Positions 4,264 to 43,353 of a stretch of 64,000 bases of DNA are shown one piece after another (the stretch's first letter is position 1; every line of letters starts with the position of its first letter). The notes below the pieces were generated by a model. It was given only the letters and a program-made list of their open reading frames with translations, searched no databases and was not told the origin of the DNA. This stretch comes from a virus. Its lineage: Duplodnaviria > Caudoviricetes. The translations under genes and the position numbers were made by a program. Location of the stretch: IMG/VR virus record IMGVR_UViG_3300028805_000037, positions 160,001-224,000 of that record. The stretch is one strand, 5' to 3'.

Positions 4264-4353
4264 TTCTATGAGAATTATTTTCTCTATACATTTCAACGAT
4301 GTTGTTTTACTACCAACTATCTCGATGTACATTTATGAATGATAGACTCACCC
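4264..4353 (-). ncRNA. TnpB omegaRNA (reRNA)-like scaffold, copy 1, overlapping the tnpB 3' end
   Basis: Overlaps the last ~12 codons of tnpB; homologous to 5535-5624 and 39111-39199 with covarying stems. Confidence 0.8.
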
Positions 4354-5456
4354 AAACTTTTTAAATTTAAAGCTGCATTTAAATCTCTATTTATTAAAGA
4401 ACCACAATTAGGACAAGTCCATTGTCTATCTTTTAATTGTAATTCTTTATATTTATAACCACAATTATTACAAATTTTAGAAGAAGCAAAAAATCTATCA
4501 GCAAATATTAAATACTTTCCTTTTCTTTTTAATTTATATTGTAATTGCCATATAAATTGAGCATAACCAAGATCATTTACTGATTTACCAAAAATTTTAC
4601 TCATTCCTTTTAAATTTAGAGATTCTACAACTATTATGTCATTTTCATTAACTAATTTATTACTTAAATTATGTAAAAAATTAGTTCTTTCATTAGTAAT
4701 ATGATAATGAATTCTACTGATTGATTTTCTCAGTTTTCTAAATCTATTACTATTATGTTTTTTCTTACTTATTTTTTTATTTAATTGTTTTAAATATTTT
4801 TCATATTTTCTATATAATCGTATATATTCTGGAGAATTATTATTTGAATCTATAAAAAATGATTGTAAACTCATATCTAAACCTAAAATTTTAGATTCAT
4901 CATTAATTTGTACTTGTTTAATATTAATATCTTGTTCAACATTAAAAGAAATAAAATAATGTTCTGAAGTATCTTTACTTATTGTAGCATGTTTAATTTT
5001 ACCTATTATTTTTCTTTTATCTTTATAATTTATCCATCCAACTATAGGTATTTTAATTTTATGATTATCATAATTAATTTTGATATTATTATTTATAAAT
5101 GATGTAGTATAAGAACCACCATATTTTTTCTTTTTAAATTGAGGAAAACCAAAATTATTTTTTACCTTTAATGATTTATAAAAATTATTATAAGCATCTT
5201 TTAAATTAACAAAAGTCCACATAAATGATTGTGAATCAACTTCATCCATAAATTTATATTCATTTTTTATTTGTTTTATTGTTTTATACTTATATTTATA
5301 TAATGTATTTTTATCATTTTTATATTTTTGATATATTTCTTTTCTTTCAGCTAACATTAAATTATACATTAATCTATTACAACCAATAGTTTTATCTATA
5401 AGTTCTTTTTGTTTATTATTAGGATAAATTCTAAATTTATAAGCAAATTGTTCCAT
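4317..5456 (-). CDS. tnpB: TnpB RNA-guided endonuclease (IS200/IS605-IS1341 type, no tnpA)
   Basis: N-terminal AYKFRIYPN HTH; RuvC D (GLDMS), E (VVESL), D (NRDLNAALNL); zinc finger CNNC/CPNC. Confidence 0.95.
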   Translation of the reverse strand: MEQFAYKFRIYPNNKQKELIDKTIGCNRLMYNLMLAERKEIYQKYKNDKNTLYKYKYKTIKQIKNEYKFMDEVDSQSFMWTFVNLKDAYNNFYKSLKVKNNFGFPQFKKKKYGGSYTTSFINNNIKINYDNHKIKIPIVGWINYKDKRKIIGKIKHATISKDTSEHYFISFNVEQDINIKQVQINDESKILGLDMSLQSFFIDSNNNSPEYIRLYRKYEKYLKQLNKKISKKKHNSNRFRKLRKSISRIHYHITNERTNFLHNLSNKLVNENDIIVVESLNLKGMSKIFGKSVNDLGYAQFIWQLQYKLKRKGKYLIFADRFFASSKICNNCGYKYKELQLKDRQWTCPNCGSLINRDLNAALNLKSLGESIIHKCTSR

Positions 5457-5659: not shown

Positions 5660-7402
5660 ATGACAAGATTAGGGCCGGGAGTTTATACAGAAGATGGAGC
5701 AAATGCAAATTTAGCTTCTTCTTTATCAGGATTTAATATAACAGCAGTTATTGGTTTAGGTAAAAATTGGAAATTAATTAGTGATGTTGAAATAGTTAAA
5801 TCTGAACCTGAAACAAATGAACCTACAGCAAATGAATTACTTTATAGTAATGTAGTTGATACATTTATTGGTGATAAATTAATTCCATATACAACTTATG
5901 TTTTACCTATAACTTCTTCAAATGCTGGTTATTATAGAGTTAATTCATCAATACAAGGTGCTTTAGAAGTTGTAAGTAATGATACTGAAAATCCTACAGA
6001 TAAACAAATAAAAATTGAAAATGTTACACCTTGGCAAGAATCAGATTCAGTTGTTATTGGTGATTATGTAATTGAATGTAATGATGGTGATTATCTTGAA
6101 AGAGATGAAGATGTAACTGGAGTAAAATTTGTTATACCTACATTAAAAAATAATGATATAATTACTGATGCAAATGGAGCTGCAATAGATTTTGATGTTA
6201 TACAAAGTATAGTAAGTTTAGGAACACTTCCTGGATTAAATCAATATAATATAAATCAAGATTATATAATAGAAAAAATTTCTTCAGAAGATGAATTAAA
6301 TGGCAAAGCTCAAATAACTTGGTTATATAATAATTATCCTGCAGTTGGTAGCTCATTTTATATTACATATAAGCAATTAAAAGATGATAAAGATTATTCG
6401 CCTAAATATAAATATTCTACTGAATCTATAACTAATGATTATGGAGCTGAATATGATAATGGTGTTGTAAATTCATTATCATTAGCAGCAGATCTTGTTA
6501 TTGAAGGCCAGACTGTATTTGGTGGTGGAGTTCTTTGTTGTCAAGTAAAAGATAATACTCTTCAAGGTTGGAAAGATGCAATAGATAAACTTGATAGTAA
6601 AGTATTTAATACATATATATTAACAAATCAGCAAGGCGAATTTGGACAACAATTACAAACATATTTAAAAAGTAAAATTGAAATGTTATCAAGTATAACT
6701 TATAAATCTGAAAAGACAGCATTTTATATTCCATTTGATAAAGATATGGAAATAGAAACAATTAATGCTTATAGAGAAGCTTTAAATTCACAAAGAATAA
6801 CATTATTTGGTAATAAAACTTGTACAGTAGAACTTGTTGATAATACAACATTAGAAACTGAATTTGTAGAATTACCTTCAATTTATGCTTGTGCAAATCT
6901 TTCTGGTATTGAAGGAAATCCTGAATATACATTTAGTGAACCTATGTTAAGAAAGCAATTATCACCAAGAATAACATTTAATGAAGAACAAAGATATAAT
7001 CCTTCTGAAATGACTTCACTTGATAATAATGGCGTTAGTATATTTGATATGGATTTATTAACAAATATTTCTTATGTATATGTTATTGGTACCACTGATA
7101 TGACTAATGTTATAACCGAAACTAGAGCTGTTAGAAGAGAAACTGATTTACTTAGACAAAATGTAAGAAGAAATCTTAATCAATACATTGGTAAAAAGAA
7201 TAAACCTATAACTGCTGCTAGTGCTACTGAAACAACAAAAGCGATGTTAAGAAATTTTGTTAATATTGATGAGATAGCTGGATTTAGAGATGTTACATCT
7301 TGGTTTGATGAACAAGATCCAAGATTATTAAAACAATCATTCTGGTATTTAAGTTATTTGGAAACCAGATGGATTCATGTAACTATTGGAGCAGAAATTT
7401 AG
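5660..7402 (+). CDS. tail sheath protein
   Basis: N-terminal PGVYTE motif, TAVIG, C-terminal VRRETD; 580 aa. Confidence 0.9.
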   Translation: MTRLGPGVYTEDGANANLASSLSGFNITAVIGLGKNWKLISDVEIVKSEPETNEPTANELLYSNVVDTFIGDKLIPYTTYVLPITSSNAGYYRVNSSIQGALEVVSNDTENPTDKQIKIENVTPWQESDSVVIGDYVIECNDGDYLERDEDVTGVKFVIPTLKNNDIITDANGAAIDFDVIQSIVSLGTLPGLNQYNINQDYIIEKISSEDELNGKAQITWLYNNYPAVGSSFYITYKQLKDDKDYSPKYKYSTESITNDYGAEYDNGVVNSLSLAADLVIEGQTVFGGGVLCCQVKDNTLQGWKDAIDKLDSKVFNTYILTNQQGEFGQQLQTYLKSKIEMLSSITYKSEKTAFYIPFDKDMEIETINAYREALNSQRITLFGNKTCTVELVDNTTLETEFVELPSIYACANLSGIEGNPEYTFSEPMLRKQLSPRITFNEEQRYNPSEMTSLDNNGVSIFDMDLLTNISYVYVIGTTDMTNVITETRAVRRETDLLRQNVRRNLNQYIGKKNKPITAASATETTKAMLRNFVNIDEIAGFRDVTSWFDEQDPRLLKQSFWYLSYLETRWIHVTIGAEI

Positions 7403-7411
7403 TTTTAAATA

Positions 7412-7550
7412 TAAAAAGGTATTGCGAACACCTTAGACTAGTTAAAAATATTAATTATTATATTTTTTAATATAATATATAAATGTAGCTTATAGAATCT
7501 AGTCTAAAGTTCGCAAAACTTAAATAAAATTCTATAGGCTATTTTTATTT
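7412..7550 (+). ncRNA. promoter plus hairpin-RNA element, family B copy 1
   Basis: TATAAT at 7471; stem TAGCTTATAGAAT/ATTCTATAGGCTA plus T-tract; loop complementary to 7422-7441; homologous to 38963-39097. Confidence 0.6.
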
Positions 7551-7564
7551 ATGGAGATATAATA

Positions 7565-7690
7565 ATGAATAAAGAAGAAATACAAAAAATTATTGATGAA
7601 TTTATTAAAGAAGATTTTATTGTTACAAATAGCCAAGGATGTTTAAATTTACGTAATAATAAAAATATAATAAATAAATATAATAATTGA
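7565..7690 (+). pseudogene. 41-aa ORF remnant truncated at the IS607 left end (possibly a former endonuclease gene)
   Basis: GGAG RBS then MNKEEIQKIIDEFIKEDFIVTNSQGCLNLRNNKNIINKYNN; runs into the AT-rich IS end. Confidence 0.4.
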
Positions 7691-7770
7691 AAATATATAA
7701 AATAATATAAAAAAATATAAAATTATTAAAACACTTTAATTTAAATTTAAAATAAATGAAGGAATAATAA

Positions 7771-8385
7771 ATGAAATCAAAACAAGTTTTAAAATTATTA
7801 CAAGTATCAAGAGTAACACTTTCAAAATATGTAAAGACTGGCTTAATTAAAGTAACAATGAAAAAAAATAAAACTTATGATTATGATGAAGATAGTATAT
7901 ATTCTTTTTTGGGAAAAAATAAAGTTGAAGAACAAAAATTAAATATAATTTATGCTAGAACTTCAAATCCACCTAAAAAATATGCTGAAGAGCAATCACA
8001 AAGAGTATTAAATTTTTGTACTTCTAAAGGTATACAAATAGATAAAATATTTATTGATGTTAAATCTGGAATGAATTTTCAAAGAATAGAATTTTTAAAA
8101 TTAATAGATTTAATAATTAATAATAAAGTAAAATTAGTAGTTATTGAAAATAAAGATAGATTAGTAAGATTTGGTTTTGAATTATTACAAGAATTATTTA
8201 AAAAGTTTGGATGTGAAATATTAATAGTAAACAATTTGTCTGAAAAAACTTATGAGCAAGAATTAACTGAAGATTTAATTTCAATAATACATTATTTTTC
8301 TATGAAATCATATTCTAATAGAAGAAAATTAAATAAAATTAAAGAAGAATTACAAAACAATGATAACATTAAAAATCAAATATAA
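7771..8385 (+). CDS. tnpA: IS607 transposase TnpA (MerR-like HTH plus serine recombinase)
   Basis: IIYARTS catalytic Ser; DVKSGMNFQR; ENKDRLVRFGFE; ELTEDLISIIHYFS. Confidence 0.95.
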   Translation: MKSKQVLKLLQVSRVTLSKYVKTGLIKVTMKKNKTYDYDEDSIYSFLGKNKVEEQKLNIIYARTSNPPKKYAEEQSQRVLNFCTSKGIQIDKIFIDVKSGMNFQRIEFLKLIDLIINNKVKLVVIENKDRLVRFGFELLQELFKKFGCEILIVNNLSEKTYEQELTEDLISIIHYFSMKSYSNRRKLNKIKEELQNNDNIKNQI

Positions 8386-9727
8386 CACTAATTTAAATAA
8401 TATAAATATAATTAAACAATATCAAAGACAATATACTATTTGTTATAAAGTTATATATAAATATTTAAAATTAGGTTTAAAATCTAATCAAATTAAAGAA
8501 AAATTAAAAAATTATAAAAATATTAATTTAATTATAAATAATTCTTGGTTTATAAATTGTTTATTTTATGATGTTAAATGCATTTTAAAAGAAACAAATA
8601 ATGTATGTTTTAATTATAATTTACATTTAAAAAGAAATAAAAATTTAATAACAAAACAAGAATTTAAAGAAAATAAGTATTTTCAAGTTTGTTCTAATGG
8701 AGAAATAGATAAAAAATGTAATAGATTCTTTAAAATTTTAAATATTAATCAAATTTTATTTAAGCCCAATAAATATACAAAAATATTATTAAATTTGCAA
8801 AGTTTAGGTAAAAATAGGATTAAAATATTACAACAATTATTAAATTTACAAAATAAAAATAATATTTTATCTATAACTTATAAATTAAATAAAGATTATA
8901 TTTATTTAACATTTGATGAATCTAATTTATCTTTAATTAAATTAAAACCAATAAATAATAGAATATTTGCTATAGATATGAATCCTAATTATATAGGTTA
9001 TTCTATTATAGATTGGAAAGATACTGAAAATTTAAAATTTAATCTTATTAATGCTGGCATAATTTCTTTAAAATCATTAAATGATAAATATTTTAGTTTT
9101 AAAAAATTAAAATTATCATCTAATAATAAATTAAAATTGCATTTAACTAATAAAAGAAAATTTGAAATCTTTGAAGTAAGTAAACAATTAATAAAATTAG
9201 CTAAACATTATAAATGTGAATTTTTTGCTATTGAAGATTTAAATATAAAATCTAATGATAAAAATTTAGGTAAAAAATTTAATAGTTTATGTAATAATTT
9301 ATGGAATAGAAATAAATTACAACAAAATATACAAAAAAGATGTAATTTAATAGGAATAAAATTTAAAAAAATAATTGCAAATTATAGTTCTATATTAGGT
9401 AATTCATTATATAGAAATTTAAAATTACCAGATATGATTTTATCTTCTATAGAAATTAGTAGAAGATGTCAAGAATTTAATTTACAATATATTAAAAAAA
9501 GTAAAAAAGTTACAAAAAATATTATTTTTCCAAATTTAACTGAAAAAGTAAGAAATTTATTAAATCAGACTATGGAAGTATTGGGAAATAAATTTCAATT
9601 TGAAACAATCAATAATTTTTGTTATTTTTTAAAAAAGAACTTTAAAAATAAATATAGAGTTCCTCTAGATTTAACTAGAGTCTTTAGACAAAAACATTTA
9701 AAATATCAATTAATAAATTTTATATAA
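8360..9727 (+). CDS. tnpB: IS607-associated TnpB-like nuclease, lacking a zinc finger
   Basis: AIDMNPNYIG (RuvC-I), AIEDL (RuvC-II), YSSILGN...PDMILSSIEISRR (RuvC-III). Confidence 0.85.
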   Translation: MITLKIKYNTNLNNINIIKQYQRQYTICYKVIYKYLKLGLKSNQIKEKLKNYKNINLIINNSWFINCLFYDVKCILKETNNVCFNYNLHLKRNKNLITKQEFKENKYFQVCSNGEIDKKCNRFFKILNINQILFKPNKYTKILLNLQSLGKNRIKILQQLLNLQNKNNILSITYKLNKDYIYLTFDESNLSLIKLKPINNRIFAIDMNPNYIGYSIIDWKDTENLKFNLINAGIISLKSLNDKYFSFKKLKLSSNNKLKLHLTNKRKFEIFEVSKQLIKLAKHYKCEFFAIEDLNIKSNDKNLGKKFNSLCNNLWNRNKLQQNIQKRCNLIGIKFKKIIANYSSILGNSLYRNLKLPDMILSSIEISRRCQEFNLQYIKKSKKVTKNIIFPNLTEKVRNLLNQTMEVLGNKFQFETINNFCYFLKKNFKNKYRVPLDLTRVFRQKHLKYQLINFI

Positions 9728-9827
9728 ATTTATATTGTTTTAAATTGTTTTTGTTATTTAAATCAATTTAAAAATTGGTATAATAATTTAAATTTAAAAT
9801 AGATTTGTATAAGAGAGGTAAAAATAT

Positions 9828-38056: not shown

Positions 38057-38960
38057 ATTATTTTTATAATATATTATATAAAAATTTTTAATTTTTGTAA
38101 ATTTTTGAGTTTTGTATACTGGAGAGAAAAGTAGACGTGAATGAAGAAACCATTGTTTGTTAATGAGTTTGTTAAAAAATCAATTTCGACTTAACCATTT
38201 CTTTACTATTTCTAATATACTAAATATAATACAAATATATTATTTAAGGAATTCTTGACTATTATTCATAATACAAGCTTCAGCTTCAGACTTATACTAT
38301 ATAAGAAGTAGTAAGTAAGAATATCTATAAGTATTAGTAGATGAATTCTAATTCTAATTCTAATTCTAATTCTAATTCTAATTCTAATTCTAATTCTAAT
38401 TCTAATTCTAATTCAGACTTCTAATTTAGTTCTAGTATACCTTTGCTATACTTATTGATTAAGTTAAAATTAGTTTTTACTAATATATTTTCTTCTTATT
38501 CTTCTTATATATTTTACTCTGCAACAATAGTTATATATGTATGCATAGTAATTAGTCTTATATATTGGCATTATCTGTAGTCTTCACTTCGCCTATTAAG
38601 GTTACGTGCAACGGTTTTTACAGGTTACATGTCTATATATCTTTCTAATTTATAACCTAAGAGTACAACATTACTAGGATTTGCTTACCGAATAGCCTTG
38701 TTAGTATACTATTCTTAGGATCATTACTCCTTCATTGTTAGTAAGTAATCGCAATTAATAACATTATACCTATACCATTACTGGCATTCGTCTTTTGATT
38801 CTTTTTATAAAAAAGAATACTTACTATATATCAATTAAGATATATAATAAAGAAAAACGTTTAAACAAGAAAAAACAGTCATAATTACAAAGATCAGAAA
38901 TACTGATTTACTACAAATTTACTACTATTACTTCACAAACTACAATTATATATTATATAA
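38057..38960. other. long non-coding region at the divergent strand switch (candidate origin and/or large ncRNA)
   Basis: No ORF of 60 aa or more; hexamer array; several hairpins; flanking genes point away on both sides. Confidence 0.5.
38344..38414. repeat. (AATTCT)x11.8 tandem repeat
   Basis: Directly visible perfect hexamer array. Confidence 0.95.
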
Positions 38961-38962
38961 AA

Positions 38963-39097
38963 AATAAAAAAGCTTATAGAAATTTTGATTTTAAAACTTT
39001 GGTAAATTTTACTCAGCTTTCTATAAGCTTTATCAATATATTATATTAAATATATTCATTTTATATACTGAGTAAGGTTTTACCAATACCTTTTTAC
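38963..39097 (-). ncRNA. promoter plus hairpin-RNA element, family B copy 2
   Basis: 14-bp stem AAAGCTTATAGAAA/TTTCTATAAGCTTT plus T-tract; loop complementary to its upstream site 39068-39086; homologous to 7412-7550. Confidence 0.6.
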
Positions 39098-41091: not shown

Positions 41092-43353
41092 ATGAAAAAA
41101 ATAAGAGATAATATTTTAAGTTGGTGTAATAATCCAGAAGAAGGAGCTATTGAACAAGCACAGCATTTAGCTGAACATCCTTGGCTCGTTGGTAATGTTT
41201 GTTTAATGCCAGATACACATGCAGGAATGGGTATGCCAATTGGAGGTGTAGTTGCACTTGATAAAGCTATATGTCCTAATATGGTTGGTGTTGATATCGG
41301 ATGTTTTACTAAAGATACTAAAGTTGCTCTTGCTGATGGAAGAAATTTAACATTTGATGAATTAATAAAAGAATCTAACAAAGAACATTATGGTTATTCA
41401 ATTGATAAAAATGGAAATGTTCAAATTTCTAAATTAGAGTATCCTAGAAAAATTAGAAATGATAATAAATTATTGAAAATAACTTTAGATAATAATAAAA
41501 TTATTAAATGCACATTAGATCATATTTTTTATAAAAGAGATTGTTCACAAGTTGAAGCTAAAAATTTAAAAATTGGTGATTCATTATATCCATTTGACAT
41601 ACAATATGCTAAAAATGTTTTAAATAATGTTGGAAATGATGAGCATTTATGTATTTTTGATGGTAAAAAATCTGAATATGTATATATTCATATATTATCT
41701 GATGCTTATAATGAAAGACATAATTTAACACAAACATTTTATAAAAGAGGTTTTGTTAGACATCATAAAGATTTTAATAAATTTAATAATAATCCTACTA
41801 ATATAACAAGAATGTTATATGAAGATCATTTTAAAATACATGCAGATAATATTAAATATACTAATAAAATAGGTATTACTAGTTATATTGCAGCTAATAA
41901 AAAACATCCTGGACTTTATAAAAGAGCATCTATTAAAAGGGCACAGTCTACATGGCAAGGTAAAAATAAAATAATTAATAAAATTAAAGCTCAAAAACGT
42001 TTTGTTTTATTAAACAAATCGTATGAAATGAGAAGAAAAAATAGTGAAAGACAAAAATTATTTAATACTAATAAATTTTCAGAATTAAATTCACAAGAAT
42101 GGATGAAAAATAGAATAAAAATAGGTAAAATAAAAAAGATATTAAATTATTTAATACAAAATAATTTAGAAATTAATGAATACAATTATAATAATGCCAG
42201 AAAACATTTTTATAATTATAGTTTTTATTCTAAAGCAAAATCATTATTAAATTCTTTAGGTTTAACTTTTGAAAAAGTTGCTAATGGAGAAACTGTAAAA
42301 AATCATAAAATTATAAAAATTGAAGAAATTGCAGGTGAAGATGTTTATTGTTTAACTTGTAAAGAATTTGGAAATTTTGCATTAGAAGCAGGTGTTTTTG
42401 TACATAATTGCGGAATGTTGGCAGTAAGAACAAATTTAGAAGAAATATCAATAGAAAGTTTAAAACAAATATTAGGTAAAATAAGAGAAACAATACCATT
42501 AGGTTTTGACCATCATAAACAACCTCAACAACATGAAATTTTTGATTTACCTGATTGGGAAGAAACAATAATTTGTAAGCAAGAATATATTTCTGCACAA
42601 AAACAAATAGGAACTTTAGGTGGTGGTAATCACTTTATAGAGATACAAAAAGGTTCTGATGGTAATATATGGTTTATGATACATTCTGGCTCTAGAAATT
42701 TAGGGTATAAAGTTGCAAATTATTATAATAAAATTGCTAATGAATTATGTTTAAAATGGAAACAAGATAAAATAGTAAAAGATCAAATAGCTGTATTACC
42801 TATTGGAACAAAAGAAGCTAATGATTATATCAATGAAATGAATTTATGTTTAGCATTTTCTAATGCTAATAGAGAACTTATGTCAAATTTTATTAAAGAA
42901 ATATTTTATAAGGTTTTAGGTAATGATGTTCAATTTGATGAAGCTATAAATATTCAACATAATTATGCTATTATTGAAAATCATTATGGCAAAAATGTTT
43001 GGGTTCATAGAAAAGGTGCAACATTAGCAAGAAAAAATACTATTGGTATTATTCCTGGTTCACAAGGAACAAGTTCGTATATAGTTAAAGGCTTAGGTAA
43101 TGAAGCAAGCATGTGTTCTTGTTCACATGGTGCAGGTAGAAAAATGTCAAGGACTAAAGCAAAACAAGAACTTGACCTTAAAACTGAACAAGAAAAACTT
43201 GATAAAAAAGGTATATTACATGCTATTAGAGGTAAAAATGATTTAGAAGAAGCCAGTTCTGCATATAAAGATATAGATGTAGTGATGGAAGAACAAAAAG
43301 ACTTAGTTGAAATATTAATTAAATTACAACCACTTGCAGTGATAAAGGGATAA
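41092..43353 (+). CDS. rtcB: RtcB RNA ligase containing an intein
   Basis: MPDTHAG, VGVDIG[C], GTLGGGNHFIE, HSGSR, HRKGAT, SHGAGR, AYKDI. Confidence 0.95.
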   Translation: MKKIRDNILSWCNNPEEGAIEQAQHLAEHPWLVGNVCLMPDTHAGMGMPIGGVVALDKAICPNMVGVDIGCFTKDTKVALADGRNLTFDELIKESNKEHYGYSIDKNGNVQISKLEYPRKIRNDNKLLKITLDNNKIIKCTLDHIFYKRDCSQVEAKNLKIGDSLYPFDIQYAKNVLNNVGNDEHLCIFDGKKSEYVYIHILSDAYNERHNLTQTFYKRGFVRHHKDFNKFNNNPTNITRMLYEDHFKIHADNIKYTNKIGITSYIAANKKHPGLYKRASIKRAQSTWQGKNKIINKIKAQKRFVLLNKSYEMRRKNSERQKLFNTNKFSELNSQEWMKNRIKIGKIKKILNYLIQNNLEINEYNYNNARKHFYNYSFYSKAKSLLNSLGLTFEKVANGETVKNHKIIKIEEIAGEDVYCLTCKEFGNFALEAGVFVHNCGMLAVRTNLEEISIESLKQILGKIRETIPLGFDHHKQPQQHEIFDLPDWEETIICKQEYISAQKQIGTLGGGNHFIEIQKGSDGNIWFMIHSGSRNLGYKVANYYNKIANELCLKWKQDKIVKDQIAVLPIGTKEANDYINEMNLCLAFSNANRELMSNFIKEIFYKVLGNDVQFDEAINIQHNYAIIENHYGKNVWVHRKGATLARKNTIGIIPGSQGTSSYIVKGLGNEASMCSCSHGAGRKMSRTKAKQELDLKTEQEKLDKKGILHAIRGKNDLEEASSAYKDIDVVMEEQKDLVEILIKLQPLAVIKG
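41302..42408 (+). mobile_element. 369-aa intein with an HNH-like endonuclease, in RtcB
   Basis: Begins CFTKDT, block B CTLDHIF, ends VFVHN|C; internal HHKDFNKFNNNPTNI. Confidence 0.93.

Follow-up and report, generated by a model that had tools for sequence, protein, structure and literature searches.

A short element present twice in a 64-kb stretch of viral DNA raises the question of what a hairpin RNA does when its loop repeats, in antisense, a site lying upstream of the same hairpin. The stretch, hereafter the window, comprises bases 160,001–224,000 of a 300,445-bp virus record (26% G+C) in IMG/VR. A preliminary description offered two readings, namely an early/late attenuation switch and a small programmable guide with which a protein encoded downstream would recognise its own flank. 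The comparison of 19 copies of the element presented below bears on both.

Layout of the element in the window

The two window copies lie at 7416–7552 on the plus strand (copy 1) and at 39092–38959 on the minus strand (copy 2), and are built in the same order: a small hairpin (P1, with AAGGT, a 9-nt loop and ACCTT) is followed by a segment B of 8–9 nt, an AT-rich spacer, a 12–13-bp hairpin (P2) with a loop of 30–35 nt, and a T-tract. In copy 1, P1 spans 7416–7434, with AAGGT at 7416–7420 facing ACCTT at 7430–7434, and its 9-nt loop consists of a single A followed by segment A, TTGCGAAC, at 7422–7429. Segment B, TTAGACTAG, occupies 7433–7441, and the spacer holds a hairpin, Ps (ATTATATT / AATATAAT, 7457–7476), which has modest energy support and whose 3' strand includes the sequence TATAAT at 7471–7476. 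P2 is formed by 7486–7497 and 7530–7541, and its loop contains B' (CTAGTCTAA, 7499–7507), A' (GTTCGCAA, 7509–7516) and an A-rich linker (7517–7529). The T-tract at 7542–7552 follows directly on the 3' side of P2, and is succeeded by a Shine-Dalgarno sequence, GGAG, at 7553–7556 and by an ORF of 41 aa that starts from the ATG at 7565 (7565–7690).

Copy 2 (38959–39092, minus strand) contains P1, all of the helices and the T-tract, with A (TTGGTAAA) at 39086–39079, B (TTACTCAG) at 39075–39068, B' (CTGAGTAA) at 39016–39009, A' (TTTACCAA) at 39006–38999, and a P2 of 13 bp between 39030–39018 and 38982–38970. It is an orphan: no endonuclease remnant was detectable in the 900 bp downstream of it. The ORF-free stretch of about 900 bp at 38057–38958 (minus strand), between this copy and the gene for an SNF2-type helicase, holds a run of GAATTA repeated in tandem about 16 times, together with several stretches of higher G+C, which could be other non-coding RNA or a decayed gene.

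In both window copies, B' is the exact reverse complement of B, and A' that of the eight P1-loop bases that make up A, so the loop is indeed, as first described, a bipartite antisense copy of the upstream site. The three bases ACC that seemed to be skipped between the two halves are the 3' strand of P1, and the AAGGT/ACCTT fold that had been proposed for the upstream site is this same hairpin, which covaries across copies. A and B are unlike between copies 1 and 2, and A' and B' are altered to match; this covariation of site and loop, which had also been noticed from the two window copies, holds in the further homologues.

Copies in the genome and in related phages

A profile of the two window copies located three further ones beyond the window in this genome, at 257,697, 260,610 and 262,432 (locus L003). 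By nhmmer profile and covariance model the 300,445-bp genome holds exactly five copies, the covariance model finding none beyond these in the whole genome. Another 14 copies were found in relatives (L156, L190, L513, L515, L516 (two), L517, L532, L534, L535, L541, L542 (two) and L548). The related contigs were reached via the sheath protein, the endonuclease protein and DNA patterns, with which the sequence collections were scanned, and the 14 copies are those reached by these routes.

The patterns differed in yield. A degenerate P1–A…A' pattern gave four additional copies, an exact 17-mer search gave one real copy (L532) and one chance match in coding sequence (L531), and a framework-motif pattern gave one real match (L190) in metagenome contigs and no real copy in GTDB genome contigs. 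When applied to IMG/VR, the framework-motif pattern returned chance matches only in its loose form and no real copy in its strict form, and a pattern combining promoter and P2 likewise returned no real copy. The sheath, used as a single-protein locus query, had no match in IMG/VR, while GenBank phages contained no DNA similar to the locus and, by tblastn, no sheath homologue. Distant sheath relatives (68–71% identity) have compact sheath–tube junctions, and only L513 among them carries a copy, which is located elsewhere; the upstream regions of more distant endonuclease homologues (L144–L155) are without the element. The leader family occurs in a lineage of uncultured jumbo phages.

The absence of a named family, suspected from the outset, was borne out by Rfam 15, which assigned no family to the 64-kb window at gathering thresholds; with copy 1 and one copy of a relative (L516a), lowering the stringency to E values of up to 10 gave only chance matches of miRNA or snoRNA type, far below threshold. 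A tRNA scan found none, and the literature search found no paper describing such a leader.

Covariation and the fold

Pairing was assessed on a model-guided alignment of 19 rows, in which four helices in pseudoknot brackets were counted. Of the alignment cells, 95.3% pair compared with 77.4% in shuffles, compensatory (both-sided) change is seen in 26 of 32 pairs, and the covariation score is 0.50 versus 0.19, a level that 0 of 500 shuffles attained. When the 3' partners were shifted by 1–3 columns, pairing fell to 27–51%. The alignment was fitted to A:A' and B:B', which favours those two helices, and register slips among the most diverged copies make the pair counts conservative; P2, though outside the model, shows compensatory change in 12 of 12 pairs.

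All of the pairings vary in this manner. P1 occurs as AAGGT/ACCTT, TAGGT/ACCTA, CAGGT/ACCTG and, in L516b, TAGGC/GCCTA, its outer pair thus covarying between UA, AU and CG. Ten or more different sequences are found for B:B' (among them GGGTAG, GGACAG, GATGGT, GCCCAT, AGTGGT and GGGAAG), each matched in the loop, and all seven of its counted pairs change on both sides across the 19 copies. A:A' pairs in 98% of cells, with both-sided change in six of its eight pairs, and its sequence is unusually conserved, being TTGAGAAC in seven copies and TTGGAAAC in four, which hints at a specific partner. P2 ranges from 11 to 17 bp.

Among the cells that depart from Watson–Crick pairing there are nine G-U and no A-C combinations (one misaligned row was set aside), which indicates that the pairing has been selected not in DNA but in an RNA transcribed in the same orientation as the downstream gene. 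The A-B and B'-A' inverted repeats flank an AT-rich segment with TATAAT, and a gene for a serine recombinase follows copy 1 at a distance of 200 nt, an arrangement that could also be read at the DNA level, as an invertible promoter switch, a cruciform or a recombination site. The wobble cells, which would be G-T in DNA, fit only one transcribed strand, however, and repeats serving one recombinase should be conserved, not covarying. Moreover, the repeats are only about 55 bp apart, and the recombinase is part of a later IS607-type insertion absent in the other 18 copies, leaving a DNA-level role with next to no probability.

The covarying pairings make up a double pseudoknot, in which A in the P1 loop pairs with A' and B, located just 3' of P1, with B', both partners lying in the P2 loop. 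A hairpin loop pairing with a downstream strand, backed by covariation, is what defines an H-type pseudoknot, and the geometry would fit such a pseudoknot whose third loop accommodates an additional helix. One base separates the 5' strand of P1 from A and none separates A from the 3' strand, an invariant AAA stands between B' and A', and the A-rich linker following A' measures 9–17 nt and is shortest where B:B' is shortest. Apart from A- and U-runs, few unpaired bases are conserved.

Two further helices are likely. A spacer hairpin of 6–9 bp is located just before P2 in 18 of the 19 copies and carries a GNRA loop in L516a/L532, L534, L535 and L542a, though its energy exceeds that of shuffles only in the diverged copies. 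The other, P3 (AAGTT with AACTT inside the P2 loop, recognised by inspection of the alignment), is possible in all copies; it overlaps A' and varies together with it, such that where A' starts with TTT the linker has AAATTT (L535 and copy 2). This covariation of P3 with A' is what would be expected if the two pairings compete and exclude each other.

Two candidate assignments were rejected on the way. P1 does not represent a sequestered Shine-Dalgarno sequence, since L516b has TAGGC in place of AAGGT, and a topology of the HDV-like or pistol ribozyme kind was discarded because the order of helices differs and Rfam gives no match.

Promoters and the probable start of the leader RNA

In the preliminary description the upstream site was placed ahead of the element's own promoter, recognised by TATAAT, but this did not hold across the copies. 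The box lies 7–10 nt before P2 in about 12 of the 19, is missing in L516a, L517, L532, L534, L535 and L542a, where a hairpin takes its place, and is degenerate in c3; in the close clade it forms the 3' strand of the spacer hairpin. No usable −35 box was found for it, and promoter-like matches were not enriched over shuffles.

A promoter-like box does, however, end 0–8 nt before P1 in nearly every copy. The palindromic 12-mer TTTAAATTTAAA has 27 sites in the genome compared with about two expected, all of them in the structural half (genome 154–296 kb), and 22 of the 27 precede a plus-strand ORF within 70 nt. In two cases the ATG follows 0–2 nt past the motif, which places the start of transcription at about the motif's end and would imply leaderless or near-leaderless late mRNAs. 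This 12-mer abuts P1 in c3 and c4 and lies 4–8 nt from it in L513 and c5, while L516a, L532, L534 and L535 share a conserved TTAGTATAAT 7–8 nt before P1. With these boxes immediately 5' of P1, and with the capsid gene upstream of c4 having its own canonical terminator, the leader RNA probably starts at P1.

These observations weigh against a two-promoter switch, in which a sigma-70-type promoter (TATAAT at 7471) would make a short hairpin or terminated RNA, whereas longer transcripts would pair with the loop and read through, or the short RNA would act in trans. The frequent presence of TATAAT before P2 speaks for such a switch, as does single-sequence folding of copy 1, whose long transcript folds best with the site:loop helix replacing P2 (in copy 2, P1 together with P2 is best). 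Cognate duplexes are, in addition, far stronger than non-cognate ones among the five co-resident copies (−17 to −26 versus −4 to −15 kcal/mol). The absence of the box from six copies and its degeneration in c3, with a hairpin at the same position, and the lack of a −35 and of enrichment argue the other way, and in a pseudoknot geometry the helices need not exclude each other. An early/late switch between two promoters is thus unlikely as it was stated, and we consider it improbable.

A terminator-like end

The proposal that the second hairpin and its T-tract resemble a terminator applies to every copy: 6–9 of the 10 nt after P2 are T in 19 of 19, against a genome T fraction of 0.35, and P2, folded alone, has an energy of −16.8 kcal/mol in copy 1 and −20.0 kcal/mol in copy 2 (z −4.6 and −5.2). 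The leader thus ends as an intrinsic terminator does, with a stable hairpin followed by a U-tract. The stem, on the other hand, is AU-rich, with 2–5 G-C pairs in place of a GC-rich stem, and its loop of 25–35 nt is far from the 3–8 nt of canonical terminators; a consensus terminator scan of 7300–7800 called none. Attenuation by a terminator-like hairpin is accordingly the part of the early/late proposal that survives, and is the best reading of the element, while the two-promoter form of it is unlikely. A ribosome-binding site is present in about half of the copies and is not sequestered in those; in the copies devoid of a Shine-Dalgarno sequence, such as L516a and L517, the start codon lies 9–14 nt from P2.

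Downstream nuclease genes and the cassette

All copies except the orphan copy 2 and the decayed copy 1 sit directly 5' of an ORF, and most of these ORFs are PHROG 3339/DUF7487 homing endonucleases. The three genome copies outside the window each directly precede an ORF of 422–622 aa that matches PHROG 3339 ('homing endonuclease') and Pfam DUF7487, L542b precedes a NUMOD3/PHROG 655 endonuclease, and two copies precede proteins without a family. The leader serves at least two unrelated nuclease families. The suggestion that the element belongs to a protein gene once located downstream is upheld by this tally, and its proposed remnant in the window could be identified as well: the first ~13 codons of the 41-aa ORF at 7565–7690 match the N-terminus of an intact endonuclease behind the same leader in L156 and of a paralogue at L003 6756.

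Most of the endonuclease gene of copy 1 has been replaced by an IS607-type insertion at 7771–9727 (plus strand), composed of TnpA and a weakly TnpB-like ORF. TnpA (7771–8385, plus strand) is a serine recombinase of 204 aa with Resolvase and HTH_17 domains; the overlapping ORF of 455 aa has no Pfam or PHROG match and shows a weak pairwise likeness to the TnpB at 4317–5456 around an RuvC-like IEDLN motif. The unit has a late-promoter motif of its own at 7740. The 3' end of the cassette is preserved at 9758–9827 (plus strand), where a C-terminal remnant of the endonuclease, QFKNWYNN (~9758–9790), is followed by a late-promoter motif at 9787–9798 and the Shine-Dalgarno sequence of the tube gene. 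The late-promoter motif of the tube gene is fused to these surviving last nuclease codons.

Other nuclease-related features were observed in the same genome. Three leader-plus-endonuclease cassettes lie between the major capsid gene and a gene for a 596-aa structural protein (L003 3842–9852; genome 257.8–263.9 kb), and since these two genes are adjacent in L515, the three-cassette cluster marks a hotspot at which nucleases have been gained. Outside the window, two further endonuclease genes of PHROG 3339-like type are preceded by a structured leader of a second, unrelated kind (genome 83,700–83,910 and 81,700–81,910, minus strand); it has a closing stem around two hairpins, and a loop, CAACTCA, that is complementary to TGAGTT beside the hairpin holding a GGAG ribosome-binding site. 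Within the window, an RtcB-like ORF of 753 aa (41092–43353) is apparently interrupted by an intein-sized insert with endonuclease-like sequence.

Mobility of the cassette

The phage L156, whose sheath protein is 98% identical to that of the window, allows an empty site to be compared with an occupied one (window 7402–7441 and 9787–9827 versus L156 6884–6913 and 7444–7470). Its sheath–tube junction is empty, consisting of 30 nt (6884–6913) with neither A nor B, and an empty site in L158 is likewise without A or B. In L156 it is the junction behind the tube gene that is occupied, by a near-identical leader 1 whose A and B are unchanged and which leads into an intact nuclease N-terminus; in the window this second junction, between the tube gene and the next, is empty. 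The empty sheath–tube site, together with the same leader after the tube gene, shows that site, hairpin and nuclease move together. Late-promoter-like sequence is found at both cassette ends, and the comparison suggests that the cassette may hop from one late-gene junction to another, through short homology or ectopic homing.

This comparison is decisive for the proposed programmable guide, a bipartite RNA that would direct the downstream protein to DNA in the manner of bridge or omega RNAs. The idea drew on the two loop segments of 7–9 nt, which vary from copy to copy and have their match in DNA close by, but the matched site lies inside the cassette and travels with it, being missing from the empty sites of L156 and L158, and the guide reading therefore fails. 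Several other observations also contradict it. Several insertion sites unrelated to one another share the identical A word TTGAGAAC, the two loop segments correspond to one and the same strand, and a genome-wide word scan found the bipartite A+B word only at each copy's own upstream site, leaving no other genomic target. The G-U pairs point to RNA–RNA pairing, and the partners, from at least two families, are homing endonucleases of the classical kind, guided by protein. No link to an RNA-guided enzyme family (IS110 recombinase, TnpB or IscB) was found, as the TnpA/TnpB-like pair at copy 1 was inserted later and none of the other copies has it. The probability of a guide function is therefore vanishingly small, and the leader is not a new kind of RNA-guided system.

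A probable cis-acting leader of a nuclease cassette

Expression of free-standing homing endonucleases must suffice for their spread yet spare the phage. On balance, we favour by a modest degree of confidence the explanation that the leader is a cis-acting RNA limiting homing-endonuclease expression. The cassette would be a self-contained expression unit, in which a phage-type promoter starting transcription at or a few bases from P1 would be followed by a leader RNA of ~125–135 nt, by a ribosome-binding site in about half of the copies and by the endonuclease gene, with the late promoter for the displaced downstream gene apparently written into the nuclease's last codons. P2 and the T-tract would act as an intrinsic terminator or attenuator before the nuclease gene, and where the ATG is only 9–14 nt away from P2 the hairpin may also impede the loading of ribosomes. 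Nuclease would thereby be made from only a minority of transcripts, and the cassette would be shielded from the strong expression of the adjacent structural genes. How easily P2 forms would be set by the long-range pairings, and because P3 competes with A:A', the leader may switch between two states.

A more far-reaching version of this cis-acting role is conceivable, though we hold it only tentatively. The alternation between A:A' and P3 might constitute a two-state switch that times nuclease production by a phage or host signal (a small molecule, a protein or the stage of infection), and the leader might belong to a broad, undescribed class of kissing-loop or pseudoknot leaders of mobile nuclease cassettes across phage lineages.

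Alternatively, the RNA could stand alone, as a stable non-coding RNA of ~125 nt that hitch-hikes with the nuclease gene and is made in excess, with the nuclease produced by read-through; it might then bind and neutralise the nuclease, or be a riboswitch aptamer or a small ribozyme. The order of promoter, RNA, terminator and gene is compatible with this, type III toxin–antitoxin loci being similarly composed of a promoter, a structured RNA, a terminator and a toxin. The orphan copy 2 keeps every helix with neither a nuclease gene nor a remnant of one, so the RNA could have an independent function; structure extends over its entire length, down to the GNRA-capped spacer hairpins of diverged copies, and the A:A' sequence is conserved more than pairing requires. 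A protein-specific partner is nevertheless unlikely, as genes of two or more unrelated nuclease families, and of unknown proteins besides, stand behind the leader. The leader is also without tandem repeats, which known type III antitoxins have, its few conserved unpaired bases beyond A- and U-runs are unlike the cores of ribozymes and aptamers, and Rfam returned no known RNA even at the permissive E values. Overall, we judge a stand-alone RNA to be rather unlikely.

With regard to the cis-acting leader, the controls known to us for homing endonucleases come from T4-type phages throughout and take the form of simple hairpins, terminators and borrowed promoters. Here, a strongly covarying fold with about five helices accompanies nuclease genes of different families, and so defines an RNA family suitable for Rfam. 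Its natural compensatory mutants offer a clean system for studying how read-through is governed by a pseudoknot that involves the loop of a terminator. The window and L156, near-identical phages with the whole promoter–leader–nuclease–promoter cassette at two different late-gene junctions, bear on how such cassettes hop.

Comparison with known systems

Regulatory hairpin loops that pair with an upstream hairpin loop are familiar from the cobalamin riboswitch, where the L5-L13 contact is a regulatory kissing loop in the expression platform. The leader resembles it in this pairing and in the competing local helix, which suggests two states. In contrast to a riboswitch, a conserved core resembling a ligand pocket is not visible and the gene context suggests no ligand, and membership is not claimed.

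The bipartite complementarity resembles, by logic only, that of the c4 antisense RNA. According to what Citron and Schuster are said to have described in 1990, its segments a' and b' are complementary to bipartite sites in the same transcript, some of them upstream of the RNA, and differ between phages P1 and P7 by covarying changes in RNA and sites; c4 reportedly acts on a second site pair over the downstream icd ribosome-binding site, after being excised by RNase P. The c4 RNA of phages P1 and P7 is represented by the C4 family of Rfam (PMC8201110). As in c4, two exposed segments of the leader are complementary to a bipartite upstream site and covary with it. Unlike in c4, a genome-wide search found no downstream copy of A and B, hence no second site pair over a translation start, and there is no match to the Rfam family.

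The PeSL elements of T4-type phages consist of a terminator hairpin followed by an early promoter (PMC2839356, PMC4122927). Like them, the leader is a short regulatory module repeated at many intergenic sites and travelling with accessory genes, and its repeated promoter-bearing ends could mediate cassette hopping, given that the window has the cassette behind the sheath gene and L156 has it behind the tube gene. The order here is different, however, with a promoter-like box, the structured RNA, and then the hairpin with its T-tract, so that only the repeated, mobile character is common to both. PeSL elements, furthermore, have no long-range pairing, whereas the fold of the leader is under clear selection.

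A match in presumed function is provided by the free-standing endonucleases of the T4 family. [quoted passage not shown] The cassette described here is likewise a selfish nuclease unit with its own regulatory RNA structure and promoter, in which a terminator-like hairpin lies 5' of the nuclease, the promoter of the displaced gene lies within the nuclease ORF, and the presumed purpose is a low level of nuclease that spares the neighbours. It differs in that the T4-family structures are single local hairpins, while the leader is a double pseudoknot of about five helices and about 130 nt, and in that it is a homologous RNA family at no fewer than 19 loci and with several nuclease families, with its ribosome-binding site not sequestered and with no sequence similarity to those controls. 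The conclusion that the leader represents a new RNA family with a known type of job would, on the strength of these sequence comparisons, appear to be well supported.
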